Below, piece after piece: positions 36 to 61,874 of a stretch of DNA of 64,000 nucleotides. Origin of the DNA: an archaeon (GTDB taxonomy: Archaea > Nanobdellota > Nanobdellia > Pacearchaeales > GW2011-AR1); contig JABHWZ010000009.1 in assembly GCA_018657525.1 (NCBI GenBank), forward strand, positions 2,855 through 66,854. Direction: 5' to 3'. A program made the translations under genes and the position numbers. Each line of letters begins with the position of its first letter. Positions within the stretch are counted from its first letter, which is position 1. The notes under the pieces were generated by a model that worked only from the letters and a program-made list of their open reading frames with translations, searched no databases and was not told where the DNA came from.

Positions 36-64
36 AATCTTTCAATAAATTTCTCTTTATCAAA
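36..64. repeat. downstream duplicate of the ftsY 3' end; on the minus strand it reads FDKEKFIERLGLKD-stop
   Basis: aatctttcaataaatttctctttatcaaa is identical at 36-64 and 180-208; weaker similarity continues about 9 nt further. Confidence 0.85.
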
Positions 65-169
65 TGAAATAAACCTAAGCGGTTTCCTTTCACAATCCTT
101 CCCTTCCTTTGCGGTTAGGTGGTTTCTTTTAATTGCGTTTACAGATACCACGTTTGATAAAGAATTATT

Positions 170-3102: not shown

Positions 3103-4347
3103 ATGAAAGGAATATTAGTTATTTTGGATGGATTGGGAGATTTGCCTAATAATCAGTTGGGGGGTAAGACTCCGTTAGAGGCGGCTAAGACTCCCAATAT
3201 GGATTTTTTGGCTACTCGTGGAGAGTTGGGGTTTATGTATCCTGTTAAACCTGGATTTGTGCCGGAATCAGATGAAGCAATTGTTTCTATATTTAATAAT
3301 AATTTAATTTCAAGTACTCGGGGACAGTTGGAAGCGAAAGGGACTGGACTAAATCTTACTCGAGGGGATTTGGCTTTGAGAGTTAATTTCGCTACGATTG
3401 ATTCTTTGGAAAAAGGAAATATTTTGGATAGAAGAGCTGGGAGAAATTTAACAACTGAAGAAGCAGAGATTCTTTGTAAAGCATTGAATAAGATTTCTTT
3501 ACCAGTAAAGTTTGAAATTGTGCCTAGTGTGCAGCATAGAGCAGTGTTAGTTTTTCGAGGAGGATTTTCAGATAATCTTGTGGGTAACGATTTAACTTAT
3601 GTTAATGGTAAAACAAAGGGGTTTAATAAAATTCATTCTTGTGAGGTTTTAGACGAGGAGGACAATTCTCAGTATACTGTAAATATATTAAATGAATTTT
3701 TAGATAAAGCGTACGATATTTTGAAAGACCATCCAGTTAATTTGGAGAGGAAGAAGAAAGGGTTTTTGCCCTCCAACTATCTTTTAGTAAGGGGCGCAGG
3801 AATTGAAATCCCTAAATTAAAACAATACAAAAAGTGGGCATCTGTTGCTTATATGCCTCTAGAAATTGGATTTTCCAAATTATCTGGAATGAATGCTTAC
3901 GAGTTTGATTATCCCAAACTAAAAAGTTTTGATGCTTACGAAAATTTATATAACGCTTTAAAAAAAGCTTGTAAATTTTCTGTTAAGATAATTAAGAAAA
4001 TTATGAAAACTTCAGAGTATCTTTATATTCATATAAAAGAAACAGATTTGCCTGGACATGATAATAAGCCTTTAGAGAAAAAGGAGATGTTGGAATATAT
4101 TGATAAAACCTTGTTTAAGTATATACGGAAAGTGGCGCCTCCAAATGAGATTAAGGTTGTTGTGACAGGGGATCATTCAACTCCGTGTAAGCTTAAGGAT
4201 CATTCTTCTGATCCTGTTCCGGTTTTATTTTATAATAATAAAGAGGTGCCAGAAGAAAAACACTTTAATGAAAAAGAGTGTAGAAAAGGGAGAGTGGGAA
4301 GAATTCTTGGTAAGGATTTGTTGAAAAGAGTTGGTTTTTCCAAATGA
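3103..4347 (+). CDS. apgM: cofactor-independent phosphoglycerate mutase, archaeal type
   Basis: N-terminus MKGILVILDGLGD, TGDHSTP motif, length typical of ApgM; ggaggt RBS upstream. Confidence 0.85.
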   Translation: MKGILVILDGLGDLPNNQLGGKTPLEAAKTPNMDFLATRGELGFMYPVKPGFVPESDEAIVSIFNNNLISSTRGQLEAKGTGLNLTRGDLALRVNFATIDSLEKGNILDRRAGRNLTTEEAEILCKALNKISLPVKFEIVPSVQHRAVLVFRGGFSDNLVGNDLTYVNGKTKGFNKIHSCEVLDEEDNSQYTVNILNEFLDKAYDILKDHPVNLERKKKGFLPSNYLLVRGAGIEIPKLKQYKKWASVAYMPLEIGFSKLSGMNAYEFDYPKLKSFDAYENLYNALKKACKFSVKIIKKIMKTSEYLYIHIKETDLPGHDNKPLEKKEMLEYIDKTLFKYIRKVAPPNEIKVVVTGDHSTPCKLKDHSSDPVPVLFYNNKEVPEEKHFNEKECRKGRVGRILGKDLLKRVGFSK

Positions 4348-8637: not shown

Positions 8638-8760
8638 GGGTTTCTTTTTTCAAAAAAAGAAAAGCTACAGTGTAAAAGAAAACTAAAATTGAAATCTTGA
8701 ATAAGATTTGTGAGTTAGAATCGTTTTCTCTTGCAATCCGAAGAACGATTCCTGTAGGGG
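8638..8760. repeat. family C structured intergenic element, copy 1
   Basis: Shares the hairpin series with 45339-45558 and 61571-61874; the central hairpin loop is inverted (gaat versus attc) and the last stem differs by compensatory changes. Confidence 0.8.
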
Positions 8761-8771
8761 ATTTTAATAAA

Positions 8772-17971: not shown

Positions 17972-17991
17972 GGTTTATAATTTTAAATTAT

Positions 17992-18019
17992 GGGGCGAAA
18001 GCCCCTTTTTCTTTTTTTT
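17992..18019 (+). terminator. hairpin GGGGC-GAAA-GCCCC followed by a T-run
   Basis: Read directly at 17992-18005, with a T-rich tract to 18019. Confidence 0.6.
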
Positions 18020-18067
18020 AAAAGTTTTTTAAGCTGAGTTATACTACTTTTTTCATGCGGGTATGCC
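18020..18067 (+). repeat. copy 1 of the tRNA-Leu promoter plus tRNA positions 1-11
   Basis: aaaagttttttaagctgagttatactacttttttcatgcgggtatgcc is identical at 18020, 18244 and 18395. Confidence 0.9.
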
Positions 18068-18243
18068 TCCGAGCTTGCAATCTCAATTTGTAATATTTAG
18101 ATACTTTTTTGGTTGTTCTATTTTAGAATTCAAAATCCTCCTTCCATCCCCCTCCCTCCCGCCCGGAGGAAAAGTAATTATTGAATTCTAAAATTATTAA
18201 TTGGTTTAAATAAAGTCAAACTTGTTCTCCCACCCCTCAATTC

Positions 18244-18291
18244 AAAAGTTTTTTAAGCTGAGTTATACTACTTTTTTCATGCGGGTATGCC
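18244..18291 (+). repeat. copy 2 of the tRNA-Leu promoter plus tRNA positions 1-11
   Basis: Same 48-mer as 18020-18067 and 18395-18442. Confidence 0.9.
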
Positions 18292-18365: not shown

Positions 18366-18394
18366 GTCAAACTTGTTCTCCCACCCCTCAATTC

Positions 18395-18431
18395 AAAAGT
18401 TTTTTAAGCTGAGTTATACTACTTTTTTCAT
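18395..18431 (+). promoter_or_regulatory. tRNA-Leu promoter (BRE/TATA-like aaaagttttttaagc about 27-37 nt upstream of the tRNA 5' end)
   Basis: A/T box at the canonical archaeal distance; a similar aaaagtt box lies upstream of tRNA-Cys. Confidence 0.5.
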
Positions 18432-18514
18432 GCGGGTATGCCGGAGTGGTCAAACGGGTCAGGTTTAGGACCTGATAGCTTATGCTTACTTAGGTTCGAA
18501 TCCTAATACCCGCA
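18432..18514 (+). tRNA. tRNA-Leu (anticodon TAG), long variable arm
   Basis: GCGGGTA acceptor, anticodon loop TTTAGGA, 15-nt variable arm, T-arm TTAGG-TTCGAAT-CCTAA. Confidence 0.9.
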
Positions 18515-18595
18515 TTTATTGAGATTCGAAGCCTCGGGTTTCGTTGAAGAATTGTGAAGCAATTGCTTTGGCGAGCGAGGATTTACATCCGACGC
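18515..18595 (+). repeat. family A module, tRNA-Leu locus (variant central segment)
   Basis: gattcgaagcctcgggtttcgtt...gagcgaggatttacatccgacgc shared with 21403-21604 (reverse strand) and 22832-22904. Confidence 0.85.
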
Positions 18596-18613
18596 CGAAT
18601 CCTAATATCCGCA
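18596..18613 (+). pseudogene. copy of tRNA-Leu positions 56-73
   Basis: cgaatcctaatatccgca versus cgaatcctaatacccgca at 18497-18514 (17/18); both are followed by tttatt. Confidence 0.9.
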
Positions 18614-20475: not shown

Positions 20476-21381
20476 ATGGCTACTAAAATTAAAATTACTT
20501 TTTTGGGAACTGCGGATGCAATTCCTAGCGTGAGAAGAAATCATTCAGCTGTATTTTTGAGTTATGATGCAGAGAATATTCTTTTTGATTGTGGGGAGGG
20601 GACACAGAGACAGTTTAGAAAGGCTAGATTAAACCCTGGGAAAGTAACACGTATTTTAATTACTCATTTACATGGGGATCATGTTTTGGGTTTACCTGGT
20701 TTAATGCAAACTTTGAGTTTGTCCAATTATAATAAAACACTTTATATTTATGGGCCAAAAGGTACAAAACAATTTGTTAGAGAAATGTTAAATACTTTTA
20801 AATTTCAAGAAAATTATCCAATTAAAGTGGAAGAAGTTTCTGGGAACTTTTTTGAAAACAAGCATTTTTATTTGGAAGCGGAAAAGATGATTCATGGAAT
20901 TCCTTGTAATGCATATAATTTTGTAAAAAAAGGAAAACTTAGAATTGATAAAAAAAAGTTGAAAAAATCTGGTTTGCCCGAAGGACCTTTGCTGTCTAAG
21001 ATTATTCAGGGGAAAGATGTTGTTTATCAAGGGAAGAAATTTAAATCAAAAGCTTTGACTTATCAAGATAAGGATTTGAAAGTGAGTTTTGTGATGGATA
21101 CTTTAGATAATAAAAGAATTGTGCCTTTTGTTAAAGGGGCAGATGTTTTTGTTTCAGAATCTACATTTAGCTTGGAGGAAAAAGATAAAGCCGAAAAGCA
21201 TAAACATTTGACGTCGGAACAAGCAGCTAAAATTGCAAAAAAAGCAAAAGTAGGGAAATTAATATTAACTCACATTAGTGCTCGTTATGATAAAAATCCT
21301 AAGAAAATTTTACTAGAAGCAAAAAAGATTTTTAGAAAGTCTGAAGTAGTTAAGGATTTAGATGTTTTGGAAGTGGAATAA
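20476..21381 (+). CDS. rnz: ribonuclease Z
   Basis: ITFLGT...FDCGEGTQRQ...ITHLHGDHVLGLPGL, metallo-beta-lactamase tRNA 3' endonuclease pattern. Confidence 0.85.
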   Translation: MATKIKITFLGTADAIPSVRRNHSAVFLSYDAENILFDCGEGTQRQFRKARLNPGKVTRILITHLHGDHVLGLPGLMQTLSLSNYNKTLYIYGPKGTKQFVREMLNTFKFQENYPIKVEEVSGNFFENKHFYLEAEKMIHGIPCNAYNFVKKGKLRIDKKKLKKSGLPEGPLLSKIIQGKDVVYQGKKFKSKALTYQDKDLKVSFVMDTLDNKRIVPFVKGADVFVSESTFSLEEKDKAEKHKHLTSEQAAKIAKKAKVGKLILTHISARYDKNPKKILLEAKKIFRKSEVVKDLDVLEVE

Positions 21382-21384
21382 ATA

Positions 21385-21495
21385 TGGCCCGGACAGGATT
21401 CGGCGTCGGATGTAAATCCTCGTTCGTCCGCTATTGAATTTCTGAAGCGAACGAAACCCAAGGCTTCGAATTCAAAAATAATTTCTTAAAAATTA
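21385..21495 (-). repeat. tandem unit 1: tRNA-Arg positions 56-73, family A module, and a copy of the tRNA trailer
   Basis: tggcccggacaggattcg (18/18 with 21605-21622) followed by gcgtcggatgtaaatcctcg...; starts 3 nt after the rnz stop. Confidence 0.9.
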
Positions 21496-21604
21496 TGGCC
21501 CGGACAGGATTCGGCGTCGGATGTAAATCCTCGCTCGTCCGCTATTGAAATTCTGAAGCGAACGAAACCCAAGGCTTCGAATCCAAATAATTTCTTAAAA
21601 ATTA
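21496..21604 (-). repeat. tandem unit 2: tRNA-Arg positions 56-73, family A module, and a copy of the tRNA trailer
   Basis: About 95 percent identical to unit 1; periods of 111 and 109 nt. Confidence 0.9.
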
Positions 21605-21679
21605 TGGCCCGGACAGGATTCGAACCTGCGACTTTCAGCTTAGAAGGCTGACACTCTATCCAGGCTGAGTTACCGAGCC
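21605..21679 (-). tRNA. tRNA-Arg (anticodon TCT)
   Basis: Reverse complement GGCTCGG acceptor, anticodon loop CTTCTAA, T-arm GCAGG-TTCGAAT-CCTGT. Confidence 0.9.
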
Positions 21680-22758: not shown

Positions 22759-22831
22759 GCGCGGATGGCACAGCGGCTACTGCGTCTCCCTGCAGAGGAG
22801 ATTTTCACGGGTTCGAGTCCCGTTCCGCGCT
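22759..22831 (+). tRNA. tRNA-Cys (anticodon GCA)
   Basis: GCGCGGA acceptor, anticodon loop CTGCAGA, T-arm ACGGG-TTCGAGT-CCCGT. Confidence 0.85.
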
Positions 22832-22904
22832 TTAGACGAGAATCCTTGGGTTTCGTTCGCTTCAAAAATTCAATAGCGGACGAGCGAGGATTTACATCCG
22901 ATGC
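22832..22904 (+). repeat. family A module, tRNA-Cys locus
   Basis: ccttgggtttcgttcgcttcaaaaattcaatagcggacgagcgaggatttacatccgatgc is nearly identical to the tRNA-Arg(TCT) units. Confidence 0.9.
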
Positions 22905-22922
22905 CGAGTCCCGTTCCGCGCT
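22905..22922 (+). pseudogene. copy of tRNA-Cys positions 56-73
   Basis: cgagtcccgttccgcgct is identical (18/18) to 22814-22831. Confidence 0.9.
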
Positions 22923-36357: not shown

Positions 36358-37191
36358 ATGTCAAAAGAATTAATTAGAGAAATTGTTGTGAATGTCGTCG
36401 GGAAACAAGCAGAGCCAATTGCAGATTTATTAAATAGTAAAAAACATGTTAATGAATTTAATTTGGCTAAAAAATTGGAGATTACAATTAATCAAACTAG
36501 AAATCTTTTATATAAACTTTCAGATCAAGGCTTAGTTTCTTCTATAAGAAAAAAAGATAAGAAAAAAGGATGGTATACTTACTTTTGGAAAATTGAGAAT
36601 CTTAAGGCTTTTGAATTTTTGAAAGGGTTACTTGATCAACGGACTAATCAGATTAATGCGCAAATTGCAAGTCGTGAGAAGAATCAGTTTTATGTTTGTG
36701 AACGGTGTAACTTGGAGTATAAGGAGGAGAATGCTTTGTTTATGGATTTTACATGCGATGAATGTGGGGAAATTTTTAAGGTGAAGGATAATTCTAAATT
36801 GGTTCGTGCGTTGCAGAGAAATCTTAAGTCTATCGACGGGGAAATGAAATTAGTGGAAATAGAAATTCAAAAAGAAAGAGATAAAATTGAAAAACAGAGA
36901 ATAAGAAAGGATAAAAAAGAAAAAGCAGAGAAGACTAGAATTAGGAAGGAGAAAGCTGCAATACGGAAGGCAATTAGAGATAAAGAAAAGAAGAAAGCAG
37001 GGTTTAAGAAAACAGTAAAGAAAAAAGTAGCTAAGAAAAAAGGCAAGAAAAAAGCTGTGAAAAGAAAAGTTAAAAAATTAGCAAAGAAGAAAAAAGTAGT
37101 TAAGAAAGTAATTAAAAAGAAATCTAAGCGTCAAAAGGCATCATCCAATACCCTAAAGGGCACGAGAGTACGGAGTTCTGGACGTAAATAA
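36358..37191 (+). CDS. tfe: transcription factor E (TFE alpha) with Lys-rich C-terminal tail
   Basis: wHTH (NEFNLAKKLEITINQTRNLLYKLSDQGLVSS...KKGWYTYFWKI) followed by zinc ribbon CERC...CDEC. Confidence 0.8.
   Translation: MSKELIREIVVNVVGKQAEPIADLLNSKKHVNEFNLAKKLEITINQTRNLLYKLSDQGLVSSIRKKDKKKGWYTYFWKIENLKAFEFLKGLLDQRTNQINAQIASREKNQFYVCERCNLEYKEENALFMDFTCDECGEIFKVKDNSKLVRALQRNLKSIDGEMKLVEIEIQKERDKIEKQRIRKDKKEKAEKTRIRKEKAAIRKAIRDKEKKKAGFKKTVKKKVAKKKGKKKAVKRKVKKLAKKKKVVKKVIKKKSKRQKASSNTLKGTRVRSSGRK
37148..37173. repeat. family G GC-rich motif forming the last codons of tfe
   Basis: ataccctaaagggcacgagagtacgg versus ataccctgaagggcacgagagggcgg at 48366-48391 (23/26). Confidence 0.7.
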
Positions 37192-45338: not shown

Positions 45339-45558
45339 GGGGTTCTTTTTTCAAAAAAAGTAGCGAACGAGTCGCTTCGAGTTCTCCTCCTTCGTCGGAA
45401 AAAAGAACCTACAGTGGTAGAAAATGGGTTTTTCTTTTAGAAAAAGAATAACCACAGTGTAAAAGAAGACTAAAATTGAAATCTTATTCAAGATTTGTGA
45501 GTTAGAATTTTCTTCTTTTTGCCTCCTACAGAAAATTCCCATGAGGGTTTTTCTTTTC
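45339..45558. repeat. family C structured element, copy 2, with duplicated head hairpin and a 39-nt GC-rich nested insertion (45360-45398)
   Basis: ggggttcttttttcaaaaaaa[gtagcgaacgagtcgcttcgagttctcctccttcgtcgg]aaaaaagaacctacagtggtag...aaatcttattcaagattt...gaattttc...gaaaattc. Confidence 0.8.
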
Positions 45559-46228: not shown

Positions 46229-46377
46229 GGTATACTTAAGGTTTTAGGGTTAAAAAGATTTTTGATTGTTTAGATAGCCATTTAAAATTATTGAATGTAT
46301 GGTTTTTGTCTTGCAAATATAAGTTTGTAGCAAAGGAAAGATATTTTAAAGGGTAAATTAGATGTTTATAATATGTT

Positions 46378-46449
46378 GGGCCTATATTTCAATGGATAGA
46401 ATAACAGGTTTCGGCCCTGTTGATCGAGGTTCGAATCCTCGTAGGCTCA
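46378..46449 (+). tRNA. tRNA-Arg (anticodon TCG)
   Basis: GGGCCTA acceptor, anticodon loop TTTCGGC, T-arm CGAGG-TTCGAAT-CCTCG. Confidence 0.8.
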
Positions 46450-46451
46450 TT

Positions 46452-46600
46452 GAGGATCTGAACCTCGTCCTCACTTTGTTGCGGATGAGACTCTTCCGCT
46501 GAATTGGAAAATCTCATAGTCACTTTGTTCTCAACAAGTTGGATGAGACTCTTCCGCTGAATTGGAAAATCTCATAGAGGATCGAAGCTTTGTAGGCTCA
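46452..46600 (+). repeat. downstream mosaic: degenerate T-arm/3'-end copy (46452-46473), 36-nt perfect tandem repeat (46483-46518, 46541-46576), second 3'-end copy (46577-46600, 20/24)
   Basis: gaggatctgaacctcgtcctca and gaggatcgaagctttgtaggctca versus the real gaggttcgaatcctcgtaggctca; ggatgagactcttccgctgaattggaaaatctcata occurs twice. Confidence 0.8.
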
Positions 46601-46630
46601 TTTGGGATCCAAAGGAAAAATAGTATTAAA

Positions 46631-47181: not shown

Positions 47182-48657
47182 TCATTTCAACAACTCAACT
47201 AAAATTTCTCTCGCTGTTTTATAATCTGCTCGTTTATTTGTTAAACGCATGACTTGTCCGATGAGGAAATTAATTGATTTTTCCTCTCCAGCCTTATAGT
47301 CTTTAACTGCTTTTGAATTTTCCCTAATTACTTCTTTTGCTATTTTTTCTATTTCTTCAGTATTTGAAATTGTTGCTGATTTTTTTGCTATGTTTTTTGG
47401 AGATTGTGATTTTTCTTTCCAGCTTCTTAAAATATCTTTGGCTTTAAGTTCTGTAAGTTTTTTCTTTTCTATTAATTCTAAAAGTTCTAGGAAATGTTCG
47501 TATTTTATTTCGGTATCTTCGAGGGTTATTTTGTTATAATTTAATACACTTAGTAATTCTTCTGTTGTCCATCTTATTGCTAAATTTTTGTTTTTTGTTT
47601 TTTCTACTACTTTTTCAAAGAATTCAACTAAGTCAATATTTTTTGTTAATATTCCTGCTGATTTTTCTGGGACTTTATATTTTTTAATTAATTTTTCTAG
47701 TTTTGTTTTTGGAGTTTCTGGAATTGATTTTTTTAATTTTTCAATTCTAGCTTTTGTAATTTTTATTGTAGGTAAATCTGGGTCTGAAATAAATCTGTAA
47801 TCTTGAGCCTCTTCCTTTGAACGCATTTTTGTTGTTGCTTGTTTTTGTGCATCATATCTTCGAGTTTCTTGATGAACTGGTAATTCTTTTTCTTGTCTGG
47901 CAATTTCTATATCAATTGAATTTTTTATATTAGTGATAGAGTTTACATTCTTTATTTCTATTCTGGTGTGATTTGTTTCTTTGATTGAAACATTAACGTC
48001 AGATTTTATTCCTGCTTTTTTATCAATGGCCTTTATGTAATCTAAATTTGTTATTAGTTGTTTTAACCATTCTTCAACTTCTTCAGAATTTTTGAAATCA
48101 GGTTCAGTAACTATTTCAATTAATGGACTTCCACTTCTATTGTAATCGATTTCTCCTGTTTGTGGATTCCATGCTGCTGGGTCTTCTTCAAGGTGGCACT
48201 CAGTTATTTTTATGCCTAAAAATTTTCCATTTTCTCCAATTGGAATTGCATGAGGTCCAGATAATGTGTTTTGGTAACCTTTTGGAAGGTCTGGCCAAGA
48301 ATAATGTTTTCTTTGCCAAGCGAGAGGACCCCTTGTTCCTCTCGCGCTCTCTCCTCGAAGCTCTGATACCCTGAAGGGCACGAGAGGGCGGCATCTTTTC
48401 TTTGCCTCCGATGGATACCGCATGTTTTTTATTCCATTTATTTTACATCCGAGAATTAATGCTATTTGAATTGCCTTGTCTATTGCAGAAGAATTTGGGG
48501 GCATTGGTTTACAACCAGGTTGCCCGGTACAAATTGGACAAATATTTGTGTTTGGTTTGGCGTGCTTTGCTCCGTGTTCAGCTTTACAAGTGCAAAATAG
48601 TTTCTCTTTGGTTTCAAGGTATCCGTGAATTTCTAAACCGATAATTGCTTTTGTCAT
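47182..48657 (-). CDS. gatB: Asp/Glu-tRNA amidotransferase subunit B carrying an in-frame ~33-aa insertion
   Basis: GLEIHGYLETKEKLFCTC, RKHYSWPDLPKGYQ, C-terminal INFLIGQVMRLTNKRAD. Confidence 0.85.
   Translation of the reverse strand: MTKAIIGLEIHGYLETKEKLFCTCKAEHGAKHAKPNTNICPICTGQPGCKPMPPNSSAIDKAIQIALILGCKINGIKNMRYPSEAKKRCRPLVPFRVSELRGESARGTRGPLAWQRKHYSWPDLPKGYQNTLSGPHAIPIGENGKFLGIKITECHLEEDPAAWNPQTGEIDYNRSGSPLIEIVTEPDFKNSEEVEEWLKQLITNLDYIKAIDKKAGIKSDVNVSIKETNHTRIEIKNVNSITNIKNSIDIEIARQEKELPVHQETRRYDAQKQATTKMRSKEEAQDYRFISDPDLPTIKITKARIEKLKKSIPETPKTKLEKLIKKYKVPEKSAGILTKNIDLVEFFEKVVEKTKNKNLAIRWTTEELLSVLNYNKITLEDTEIKYEHFLELLELIEKKKLTELKAKDILRSWKEKSQSPKNIAKKSATISNTEEIEKIAKEVIRENSKAVKDYKAGEEKSINFLIGQVMRLTNKRADYKTAREILVELLK
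48322..48420. repeat. GC-rich palindrome-bearing insertion inside gatB (99 nt, in frame)
   Basis: 58 of 99 bases are G/C by my count, in an AT-rich gene; hairpin gcgagagga/tcctctcgc; contains family G motif 48366-48391. Confidence 0.75.
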
Positions 48658-48707: not shown

Positions 48708-49025
48708 ATGAGAGAATTTTCAAGGCATTCAAAATTTCTTTTTAATAGTTTGCATAATTTGGGTGCTGTTTTTGATGAGCAAGAATTAAGAACTGGATTA
48801 TTTACTTATGCTTGTGAATTTGCGACATTGGATGGATTTGATCCCGCCAAATCTACTAATTATTTGGAGTGGTTAATGTATGAAAAATTAATTCAAACCT
48901 TTAAATTTTGTAGAGAGGCTTACGAATTAGGGGGATTGGGATTGGAGATTAATATTCCCACTGATAAGATTTTGGATGGAGTATTAAAAGAGAAAGAGTC
49001 TTGTGTTTTTTCTTATATTAGATAA
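48708..49025 (+). CDS. hypothetical protein
   Basis: ORF only. Confidence 0.45.
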   Translation: MREFSRHSKFLFNSLHNLGAVFDEQELRTGLFTYACEFATLDGFDPAKSTNYLEWLMYEKLIQTFKFCREAYELGGLGLEINIPTDKILDGVLKEKESCVFSYIR

Positions 49026-49054: not shown

Positions 49055-50338
49055 ATGGAAAAAACTAATGCAAAATCAGGGGATTACGTTGAAGTTCATT
49101 TGACTCAGAAAATTTATGAGGGAGTGCTTTTAGAGAGTTCTGAGGATGAGAAAAATATTATTTTGTTAAAGTTAGATAATGGGTATAATATTGGGTTTCT
49201 TAAAAAAGATATTCAGAAAATTATTGTTAATGAGAAGGCAAAGGAGAGTAAAGAAGAATTGAATATTAAGAAAGATAATTCAAAGCCGAATGTTGGAATG
49301 ATTATTACTGGAGGGACAATTGCTGCGCGTTTGAATCCAAAAAAGGGGGGAGTGGATTGGGTTGATACTCCTGAAAGTTTGTTTAAATATTATCCTGGGA
49401 TTTTTGATAAAGTAAATATTTCAAAAATTGATGTGCCATTTATGAAAGCATCAGAAGATATGGATTTTAAGGATTGGCAAAAAATTGCTCGGTCTGCTGA
49501 TAAGATGTTGAATGATTCAAATATACAAGGAATTATTGTTACGCATGGTACTGACTTTTTGCATTATACTTCTGCGGCTTTGAGTTTTTTTCTTAGAGAT
49601 TTAAATAAGCCGGTTGTTTTAACATATTCTCAGAGATCTATTGATCGAGCTTCATCAGATGCTAATTTAAATTTGCAATGTAGTGCTCTTGTTGCTATTT
49701 CAGATATTGCTGAAGTTATGTTAGTGGGGCATTCTTCATCTGATGATGATTATTGTGATGCAATGATTGGGACAAAGGTGAGAAAGTTACATTCGACTAA
49801 ACGAGCGGCGTTTAAATCGGTGAATGTGAAACCACTTGCGAAAGTTTATCCTGGGGAAATTGATATCCTCGGAAAATATCAGGTTAGAAATAAGGGCAAA
49901 GTTAAATTAGATATTAAGTTTGAGGAAAAAGTCGCTTTGGTTAAATTTTATCCTGGCATGTCTCCAGAGATTTTAGATTATTATTTGAAAAAAAAGTATA
50001 ATGGAATTGTTTTGGAGATGGGGGCTTTAGGTCACGTGGCAACTAAAAGGGCTAGATTAGGTTGGACTAAAAAGTTAAAAGAAGTGCAAGAGAAAGGGAT
50101 GATTGTTTGTGGGGTTACTCAATGTATTTTTGGCCGGACTGATCCGTTAGTTTATTCTAATGGGCGAGAGCTTTTAGCAACGGGAATTATTTATCTAGAA
50201 GATATGTTAGCAGAAACAGCTTTTGTAAAATTGGGGTGGGTTTTAGGTCATGAAGATTGGGCGAAAGATAAAGAATTAGTTAAAGAGAAAATGTTGGAAA
50301 ATATTGCTGGAGAATTAAACGATAGATTAGAAGAATGA
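49055..50338 (+). CDS. gatD: Glu-tRNA(Gln) amidotransferase subunit D
   Basis: N-terminal GDYVEV...GVLLES barrel followed by an asparaginase-like domain (IITGGTIA..., HGTD). Confidence 0.85.
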   Translation: MEKTNAKSGDYVEVHLTQKIYEGVLLESSEDEKNIILLKLDNGYNIGFLKKDIQKIIVNEKAKESKEELNIKKDNSKPNVGMIITGGTIAARLNPKKGGVDWVDTPESLFKYYPGIFDKVNISKIDVPFMKASEDMDFKDWQKIARSADKMLNDSNIQGIIVTHGTDFLHYTSAALSFFLRDLNKPVVLTYSQRSIDRASSDANLNLQCSALVAISDIAEVMLVGHSSSDDDYCDAMIGTKVRKLHSTKRAAFKSVNVKPLAKVYPGEIDILGKYQVRNKGKVKLDIKFEEKVALVKFYPGMSPEILDYYLKKKYNGIVLEMGALGHVATKRARLGWTKKLKEVQEKGMIVCGVTQCIFGRTDPLVYSNGRELLATGIIYLEDMLAETAFVKLGWVLGHEDWAKDKELVKEKMLENIAGELNDRLEE

Positions 50339-61570: not shown

Positions 61571-61685
61571 GGGGTTCTTTTTTCAAAAAAAGAACCTACA
61601 GTGGTAGAAAAAAATATGTTGACAAATCTTATTCAAGATTTGTGAGTGAGAATTTTCTTCTTTTTGCCTCCTAAGGAAAATTCCC
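61571..61685. repeat. family C structured element, copy 3
   Basis: ggggttcttttttcaaaaaaagaacctacagtggtag...aaatcttattcaagattt...gaattttc...gaaaattccc. Confidence 0.85.
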
Positions 61686-61874
61686 GGCCCTCCCCCTCTT
61701 TTTTCAAAAAGAAAATCTACAGGGGTAGAAAAAAATATGTTGACAAATCTTATTCAAGATTTGTGAGTGAGAATTTTCTTCTCTGCTCAAGCTCACACTC
61801 GCTTTTTGTGACGTTCGCTTTGCTCACAAATTTTTGCGAGGGTAAACTTTCGGCCTCCCATGGAAAATTCCCCC
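61686..61874. repeat. family C structured element, copy 4, tandem to copy 3, with a 71-nt nested insertion (61783-61853)
   Basis: Same hairpin series; the last stem is interrupted by ctgctcaagctcacactcgc...gggtaaactttcgg. Confidence 0.8.

Follow-up and report, generated by a model that had tools for sequence, protein, structure and literature searches.

A short two-hairpin repeat carried in frame within gatB and other housekeeping genes of Pacearchaeota-like DPANN archaea

The stretch of DNA analysed here (the window) comprises 64,000 nucleotides of an archaeal contig (GenBank JABHWZ010000009.1, positions 2,855 to 66,854; lineage Pacearchaeales) and carries on its minus strand an intact, full-length gatB gene (47182-48657, 491 aa; open reading frame (ORF) list and Pfam/NCBIfam). 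Between residues ~78 and ~112 of the encoded protein, the gene contains an extra element of 102-103 nt (48320-48422, minus strand, sense to gatB). An earlier inspection of the letters alone, the original prediction, had interpreted this as a small palindromic selfish element inserted in frame into an essential gene.

The gatB product consists of Pfam GatB_N and GatB_Yqey and matches the NCBIfam GatB equivalogs with 417-431 bits, and all GatB matches, whether to Pfam, to NCBIfam or to the solved GatB, are broken in two around residues ~75-113. In the alignment with the solved GatB 3h0l_B, query residues 3-74 correspond to 6-73 and query residues 114-491 to 78-476. As a comparison set we used the 120 best GatB homologues, from Pacearchaeota/Nanoarchaeota-type DPANN archaea: the gap between the conserved LxC[K] and RKHY is 8 residues in 105 of them and 43 in the window GatB (42 against 8-10 in the original prediction), and the insert therefore amounts to ~35 codons. 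Its composition was also correctly described, with 58 of the 99 nucleotides at 48322-48420 being G or C (58.6%) against 30.4% for gatB minus the element, and the 9-bp stem reported there is present, gcgagagga at 48320-48328 pairing with tcctctcgc at 48337-48345. The boundaries first proposed, 48322-48420, lie no more than 2 nt from those given by the covariance model described below. An independent contig from Saanich Inlet (L037; other loci are likewise given by our labels) carries the same gatB with an identical 3' part of the insert, and ends inside the insert. Because this 3' part is identical, the insert is no assembly artefact.

Structure prediction, which had been suggested as a check, places a disordered stretch at the insert: AlphaFold gives residues 76-108 no secondary structure and a predicted local distance difference test (pLDDT) score below 50, from a shallow alignment (20 sequences) and for the monomer. 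Helix 56-68 precedes this stretch and strand 110-118 follows it. The rest of the protein mostly folds as GatB with confidence, residues 23-49 and 122-131 likewise being at pLDDT below 50.

Divergent from gatB, and ~400 nt away, lies a GatD gene (49055-50338, plus strand; NCBIfam GatD, 430 bits), with a 105-aa ORF (48708-49025) between the two. GatD normally pairs with GatE. Its neighbour here is a GatB-type and not a GatE-type subunit, GatD is near gatB in L001 too, and the subunit pairing of GatD in this lineage may be unusual.

The canonical core of the element is 84-86 nt long and is made up of one unpaired pyrimidine, hairpin B (8 bp), CCCTTCAGNGC, TTCGAGGAGAGAGC and hairpin A (9 bp), where the spacer following hairpin B is short and of CCCTTCAG type and TTCGAGGAGAGAGC is a purine-rich motif. 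We described it with an alignment of 26 distinct copies over this core (A2) and with a covariance model built from the family (R1), which finds the gatB copy at full length (model positions 1-84; 85.1 bits, E=3e-20). Read in the frame of gatB, the element gives (M)RYPSEAKKRCRPLVPFRVSELRGESARGTRGPLA. Its parts all lie on the minus strand. The 5' module, hairpin B (48388-48421, from A2), has an 8-bp stem formed by GCGGTATC and GATGCCGC around the loop CATCGGAGGCAAAGAAAA. It is followed by an extra 18-nt segment, CTCGTGCCCTTCAGGGTA (48367-48384), an insertion relative to the model that makes the window copy 18 nt longer than the family core; this segment is absent from the 25 other aligned copies and recurs in L024:1041-1142, a variant copy, as well as at the tfe 3' end. 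The single-stranded linker TCAGAGC-TTCGAGGAGAGAGC (48346-48366) is the most conserved part of the family, invariant throughout A2 and in four gatB copies found via protein homology, independently of the search pattern used below. Hairpin A, the 3' module (48320-48345), has a 9-bp stem formed by GCGAGAGGA and TCCTCTCGC around the loop ACAAGGGG and the family consensus RCGAGAGAA...TTCTCTCGY. It is supported by pair counts and by compensatory changes: between the window and L001, L003 and L004, G-C is replaced by A-T at stem positions 1 and 8.

Across A2, eight pairs have changed on both sides: six of the eight in hairpin B, where the stem sequence is variable and 99.5% of cells are paired, and two of the nine in hairpin A. 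Over the whole element 97.7% of cells are paired, compared with 89% in shuffles, none of 500 of which reaches the observed value; slid registers of the alignment yield 37-54%. G-U pairs are rare, and the hairpins could therefore form on both DNA strands. The element is thus hairpin-forming as first claimed, but it is not a single palindrome, since it consists of two different hairpins and a conserved purine-rich linker. Similarly, the 26-nt motif that had been singled out is part of the window copy, but its core is the extra segment, which belongs to a sub-variant shared with L024:1041-1142 and lies outside the family core. A permissive search of the insert against Rfam 15 returned chance-level matches (E >1, far under the gathering scores), and a search of the 64-kb window at the gathering thresholds returned tRNAs and nothing else from Rfam.

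Within gatB, a 64-codon ORF in another frame (MPPSRALQGIRASRRERERNKG...; 48200-48394, minus strand) starts from an ATG located in the 3' arm of hairpin B. In L011 the corresponding ATG is apparently where Bud32 starts, and in L016 it falls in frame within the Bud32 ORF.

A 21-nt pattern spanning linker and stem, TTCGAGGAGAGAGCNCGAGAG, was scanned over species-representative genomes, JGI/ENA metagenomes and viral contigs. It returned 29 loci, 7 in genome assemblies and 22 in metagenomes, and none in viral contigs. The named genome records among them are metagenome-assembled genomes (MAGs) of Pacearchaeota, Nanoarchaeota or Woesearchaeota, and one MAG, RS_7_11, has copies on two contigs. R1 scores the copies at 78-108 bits (the window copy at 85 bits), and the pattern-matched loci occupy at least 16 different host sites. 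In-frame hosts include family-B DNA polymerase PolB, at two different sites of which each PolB has one filled and the other empty, and protein-isoaspartate methyltransferase (PIMT), at the same site in three genomes; in UMP kinase and an ERCC4/Hef-like nuclease the copy is internal, and in a LigD-phosphoesterase (LigD-PE)-like protein, a metallophosphoesterase and Bud32 (three genomes) it is near the N-terminus. Other copies abut start codons, among them those of pheT, EF-1beta, rpS3Ae, an RPA-like gene and a presenilin-like gene. All three sense frames are used among the hosts (ATFVGGKEKSRPSALRGESARETRGSL, RDFRRRQRKKSPFSTSRRERERNKGFSR and RLSSEAKKKVALQHFEERAREKQGVLS). The census for similar sequence elsewhere, with reading frames, that had been proposed thus yields 29 loci in unrelated genes. 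The three sense-frame peptides, concatenated, found no match in an index of 5.8 billion proteins, a word index ill-suited to 28-aa segments.

Inserts at the same site are present in four other GatB clusters (P0004, P0007, P0012 and P0116), where they end in S.(L/I)RGES(A/T)R(G/E)T(R/T)G(P/S)L(A/V)-WQRKHY. The module shared by the gatB copies, TTCGAGGAGAGAGC-RCGAGAGRAACAASGGGTYCTCTCGY, is conserved as nucleotides, and upstream of it each copy has its own, perfectly paired hairpin. When the window is compared with L001, the shared module differs at five positions, each altering the amino acid; four of these changes are compensatory within the stem, turning two G-C pairs into A-T. The gatB copy of L006 has decayed to an AT-rich, shortened sequence with the frame kept. 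The five carrier lineages of GatB are scattered: the eight nearest relatives of each are without an insert, P0004 (with insert) and P0013 (no insert) are 88% identical, and the smallest clade that holds all gatB carriers is the entire tree. Copies often cluster by sample or genome over host gene, as in three different hosts of Ga0066639 whose copies are 91-95% identical, and the gatB copies have their nearest relatives in PIMT, ERCC4 or pheT loci. Two independent contigs break inside the element. Instead of a conserved insert in all relatives with nothing similar elsewhere, we therefore find most relatives without the insert and many copies elsewhere.

The core is 84 nt, or 28 codons, in 10 of the 11 canonical internal copies that were measured, and the UMP kinase copy, at 86 nt, still keeps the frame; at gene 5' ends cores of 84, 85 or 86 nt occur. 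All internal copies preserve the frame of the host, including gatB inserts of 57 to 120 nt, and in L031 the element has lost 1 nt and gained 1 nt at places 26 nt apart, which together leave the frame restored. Purines make up 58% of the sense strand. Stop codons are absent from its three frames in 24, 21 and 27 of 28 copies, and the encoded peptides have a mean hydropathy of -1.0 to -1.65 and 33-46% charged residues. A script scan of five gatB variants for the bulge-helix-bulge (BHB) splicing motif in its hBHBh' form, with 3-nt bulges and a 4-bp helix, detected none that could cut out the insert so as to restore GatB. The ends of the element are bases of two separate hairpins beside host-specific sequence, and therefore cannot pair together. 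The consistently kept frame and the compensated frameshift in L031 argue for translation over removal, and the element is probably retained in the mRNA and translated into a surface loop.

The 26-nt motif (48366-48391) recurs at 37148-37173, as the original prediction had noticed, with 23 of 26 positions matching on the same plus strand, which is antisense to gatB and sense to tfe (0 expected from 100 shuffles). There a fragment of the variant element (37148-37173, minus strand, antisense to tfe) supplies the tail of TFE, which ends in ...NTLKGTRVRSSGRK before the stop codon; the TFE of L003 is without this tail. The variant copy L024:1041-1142 lies upstream of a tRNA gene, and its antisense-frame translation contains DTLKGTRRRHLF. 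A survey of the whole window by blastn-short and the covariance model turned up a single canonical copy, a single diverged copy and the tfe fragment, as well as modules resembling hairpin B in another repeat family. The diverged copy is of the type found in tRNA introns (see below) and lies just past the stop codon of an FtsY-like gene (64-152, minus strand; R1 16.7 bits, E~0.01). It is followed by a ~35-nt duplicate of the 3' end of that gene (FDKEKFIERLGL), with a flank score of 23 against a control maximum of 19. The FtsY-type arrangement recurs in another genome (L011:1812-1893), and a like duplication flanks L010:4844-4963; long flank duplications of host gene 3' ends are limited to these diverged copies.

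A tRNA-Arg(TCG) gene is convergent with gatB in the window, L001 and L006. In the last two it has a giant intron at the canonical position, of ~300 nt in L001 (L001:17350-17765, minus strand) and ~125 nt in L006 (L006:1432-1640, minus strand). Both introns are built of tandem relatives of the element lying antisense to the tRNA (R1 42 bits in L001). The intron junction of L001 forms a proper BHB (AAAGG TTTC GG/A TGAG ... CTCA GAAA AA/C CCTTT), and in L006 the inner helix of the BHB is not traceable. tRNA genes with such giant introns would escape ARAGORN-type finders.

In the window, tRNA-Arg(TCG) (46377-46450, plus strand) is intron-less. It is followed by two identical 37-nt direct repeats (46483-46519 and 46541-46577) and then by a degenerate second copy of its own 3' end (GAGGATCGAAGCTTTGTAGGCTCA, ~46578-46601). 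Other repeats also border tRNA genes. Two ~100-nt repeats (21377-21476 and 21488-21587, 95% identical) lie just 3' of tRNA-Arg(TCT) in the region 21365-21622, each with a copy of the final ~22 nt of that tRNA in front of it, and inverted copies lie 3' of tRNA-Cys and tRNA-Leu (22831-22914 and 18516-18603); these repeats make up a second small family, associated with the 3' ends of tRNAs. Three copies of a 77-nt segment that ends in ...TTTTTTCATGCGGGTATGCC are present (17991-18067, 18215-18291 and 18366-18442, the last two identical); the segment corresponds to the upstream region and first bases of tRNA-Leu(TAG), into which the third copy alone runs. An AT-rich family outside long ORFs (8639-8765, 45426-45552, 61576-61661 and 61697-61782) has a hairpin, GAATTTTC-TGTAGGAGGCAAAAAGAA-GAAAATTC, with a loop like that of hairpin B and weak R1 scores of 12-13 bits; it may be a distant cousin of the gatB element.

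We conclude, with a probability of roughly three in four (0.77), that the gatB insert belongs to a multicopy, non-autonomous family of repeats in Pacearchaeota-like DPANN archaea. Our confidence is high for the family membership and the in-frame carriage, moderate for the element being purely selfish, and low for the mechanism of its spread. The in-frame selfish element proposed in the original prediction is supported by the patchy carriers, by the same DNA in unrelated genes and by conservation at the level of nucleotides and hairpins rather than of the peptide, a conservation that speaks for selection or for recent origin. Mobility is suggested by the distribution: the many host sites, presence and absence among close relatives, sample-wise subfamilies and broken contigs point to mobility or turnover. 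The element would be retained in the mRNA and translated, each sense frame giving a charged, hydrophilic peptide that could be tolerated as a disordered surface loop, and copies would survive only if they keep the frame or stand in a short upstream ORF beside a start codon. What is recognised during spread is probably the pair of hairpins. The spread might be driven in trans by a single-strand DNA transposase that recognises hairpins, like those of IS200/IS605, or might proceed by recombination or gene conversion between copies.

Several observations weigh against a freely spreading selfish repeat. Terminal inverted repeats (TIRs) are lacking, as the 5' end YGCGAC and the reverse-complemented 3' end RCGAGAG share GCGA alone, and no target-site duplication (TSD) is seen at canonical copies, whose 5' and 3' flanks score like mismatched controls. 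No transposase or autonomous partner, and no TnpA or TnpB partner, was found, although no systematic transposase search was made; TnpA, at which no search was aimed, is absent from the Pfam lists of L001-L007. The window contains a single canonical copy in 64 kb. The same sites are occupied repeatedly in orthologous genes. Conservation is very high, the 3' module being 83-94% identical, and 88-100% at third codon positions, between copies whose host gatB DNA is 69-74% identical and 50-57% at third positions; the 21-nt pattern picks conserved copies, and conservation of the linker in the pattern loci is thus partly by construction. All 29 copies are in sense orientation to the host gene, although two antisense frames are often open, and at 6 of 16 independent sites the element is followed immediately by an ATG, which has a background frequency of 1.4%. 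The repeated sites, the conservation, the orientation and the ATGs are more than simple selfish DNA would call for and could hint at a function or at targeting. Two candidate target duplications were considered, one of a TGGCAAAGAAAACAT-like flank in the window gatB and one of the start regions at 5' copies, and neither shows an excess over mismatched flanks. The repeated occupancy of sites in diverged genomes may stem from old insertions with loss and conversion, from targeted insertion, or from both.

Stop codons alone cannot account for the uniform orientation, because the two antisense frames are open in 18 and 23 of 28 copies. Antisense-frame hydropathy is ~-0.1 to -0.3, far less hydrophilic than in the sense frames, and 11 of 26 antisense copies contain T-runs of 5-7, compared with a maximum of 4 on the sense strand; oligo-T is the archaeal signal for transcription termination. 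Selection against hydrophobic inserts and premature termination would be a sufficient explanation for the sense bias. A strand-specific insertion mechanism is also possible, and would likewise fit the finding that the gatB copies and those in the tRNA intron, which is transcribed in the opposite direction, have one and the same absolute orientation in both L001 and L006.

The 3' flanks of the 16 independent sites favour ATGG (+1 A in 11, +2 T in 10, +3 G in 9 and +4 G in 8), and the 5' flanks show no motif. This bias could reflect either target choice or survival at the only harmless positions. Four copies abutting ATGG starts have a T-to-G change in hairpin A that creates GGTG. Five copies at gene 5' ends (pheT, EF-1beta, rpS3Ae, the L020 gene and the presenilin-like gene; at L010:7274-7390, L014:6640-6755, L020:6272-6385, L024:312-425 and L022 ~3800-3908 (minus strand)) lie inside upstream ORFs of 36-38 codons, which start 13-23 nt before the element, stop -1 to +16 nt from its end and overlap the host start codon. 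The arrangement is reminiscent of a leaderless upstream ORF coupled translationally to its host gene. Genes of the window have a TATA-like box (TTTAAAA/TTTATAA) ~25-30 nt before the ATG, and the upstream regions of the same 39 ORF starts show no enrichment of Shine-Dalgarno motifs; together these suggest mostly leaderless mRNAs. The idea that the element provides a Shine-Dalgarno sequence was rejected because the window genes look leaderless, which leaves of it only the GGTG observation.

A bolder proposal, which we regard as an outside chance, combines these features: the element could be a site-selective, sense-strand-specific module of DPANN archaea with leaderless mRNAs, inserting beside (A/T)TGG, often at start codons, and then lying in an upstream ORF that would couple ribosomes to the host gene, while being moved by a hairpin-recognising enzyme and kept uniform by conversion. 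If true, the element would be mobile, would target translation starts and would rewire them as well.

The same start-codon features also bear on whether the element is instead a functional RNA module on the sense strand, recruited by housekeeping genes as a protein-binding or processing site or as a translation-coupling leader. The exclusive sense orientation, nucleotide conservation far above that of host synonymous sites, the excess of following ATGs, the five upstream ORFs overlapping start codons in a genome that is otherwise apparently leaderless and without Shine-Dalgarno motifs, and the GGTG variant in all four copies abutting ATGG would all suit such a role. However, the pattern of presence and absence shows that host genes work without the element, copies decay (as in L006), and the orientation is explicable by selection, given the less hydrophilic antisense frames and the T-runs of at least 5 in 11 of 26 antisense copies. 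With no Rfam match, and hosts that have nothing in common beyond a housekeeping role in a small genome, we consider this explanation improbable. Orientation and strongly conserved structure might also be expected of an intervening sequence cut out at the RNA level, for instance by the tRNA-splicing endonuclease at a BHB, which would leave GatB without the insert; relatives of the element do fill the tRNA-Arg(TCG) introns of L001 and L006, with a good BHB in L001. Within those introns, however, the element is antisense to the tRNA, none of the five gatB variants has a BHB that would excise it, and its ends cannot pair with each other. A spliced sequence would need neither the frame kept in internal copies nor the compensation in L031, and even the decayed L006 copy is still in frame, which makes removal from the RNA highly improbable.

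Vertical inheritance of an old, lineage-specific GatB loop kept for protein function would explain why five lineages have an insert at the same site with the common motif RGES.R.T.G.L, and why two types of 5' flank (ING[IV]KN and KIGG) each occur in several carriers. This is barely tenable given that the carriers are scattered among nearest relatives without the insert, that the substitutions in the shared module are all non-synonymous and compensatory in the DNA, and that gatB copies are not each other's closest relatives; the multi-gene census, with the same DNA in other genes and other frames, contradicts it, and AlphaFold predicts disorder. Finally, GC-rich repeats are prone to misassembly and contigs do break at the element, but the chance that the insert is an assembly or chimera artefact is negligible, with the identical sequence on the same gatB in the independent Saanich Inlet assembly, an intact reading frame and homologous inserts at the same site in four other assemblies.

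In-frame selfish DNA within essential genes is best known from Rickettsia. The present family suggests that very small, gene-dense DPANN genomes carry such repeats too, persisting there through translatability in every sense frame and endowing GatB, PolB, Bud32, UMP kinase and other core enzymes with charged, disordered loops. In practice, the element splits hidden Markov model matches and breaks assemblies, and it can mislead gene calling and the choice of start codons in the MAGs concerned; R1 and the 21-nt probe can be used for a full census. The strict orientation, the link to start codons and upstream ORFs, the recurrence of sites and the connection with tRNA introns set it above a routine repeat, and the giant tRNA introns, orientation and start-codon link raise questions about spread where mRNAs are leaderless.

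Several known systems share features with the element. BHB introns of archaeal protein genes, such as that in cbf5 of Crenarchaeota (PMC2738675), are also short, structured and sporadic among relatives, and the element has relatives in tRNA introns; in contrast to them, it has no BHB at its gatB junctions, keeps the frame and is antisense to the tRNA where it lies in tRNA introns. An intein was rejected, as the insert of 28-35 aa falls short of the ~130 aa or more that is needed and the same DNA is read in three frames among hosts. MITEs, the miniature inverted-repeat transposable elements, occur in Sulfolobus (SM elements), Halobacterium, Haloquadratum and other archaea, and a TIR-based census found a high MITE density in some DPANN genomes (PMC11602168). 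Like these, the element is small, carries no transposase, is multicopy, varies in presence and absence and forms genome-specific subfamilies; unlike them, it has no TIR beyond GCGA, no TSD and a mostly intragenic rather than intergenic location. Finders that rely on TIRs would probably overlook it.

The two ends carry different subterminal hairpins, and neither TIR nor TSD was found here; this is reminiscent of elements derived from IS200/IS605 (PATE, REP/REPtron). Such elements insert in a specific orientation by a short target, and the A/T-T-G-G of the 3' flank would equal CCAW 5' of hairpin A on the other strand. The in-frame, translated lifestyle sets the present element apart from them, and its target motif is a statistical bias that could equally stem from selection; we take the resemblance in end architecture as a lead, not a finding.

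In the searched literature, no archaeal hairpin element that is carried in frame and translated is described, in agreement with the original prediction, which knew of no equivalent in DPANN archaea. The closest functional analogue is the Rickettsia palindromic element (RPE). According to a summary of Ogata et al. (2000), RPEs are hairpin-forming, multicopy, non-autonomous repeats of ~100-150 bp without a known transposase, which lie in frame and stop-free in unrelated housekeeping genes as well as in RNA genes and non-coding DNA, and add an extra hydrophilic peptide thought to be surface-located (PMC10969869). The likeness, which is one of function only, covers the short, multicopy hairpin repeat, its in-frame position in unrelated housekeeping genes, the hydrophilic peptide, the further occurrence in RNA genes and non-coding DNA and the lack of a known transposase. 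Unlike RPEs, the element has DPANN archaea as hosts, for which homology to RPE-1 to RPE-10 would not be expected, is smaller, at 84 nt, and combines two distinct hairpins with a conserved single-stranded linker; it uses all three sense frames in strict orientation, has many copies at start codons in short upstream ORFs, and occupies the same sites in orthologous genes of diverged genomes. These comparisons support viewing the element as a previously undescribed, RPE-like family of in-frame repeats in DPANN archaea.

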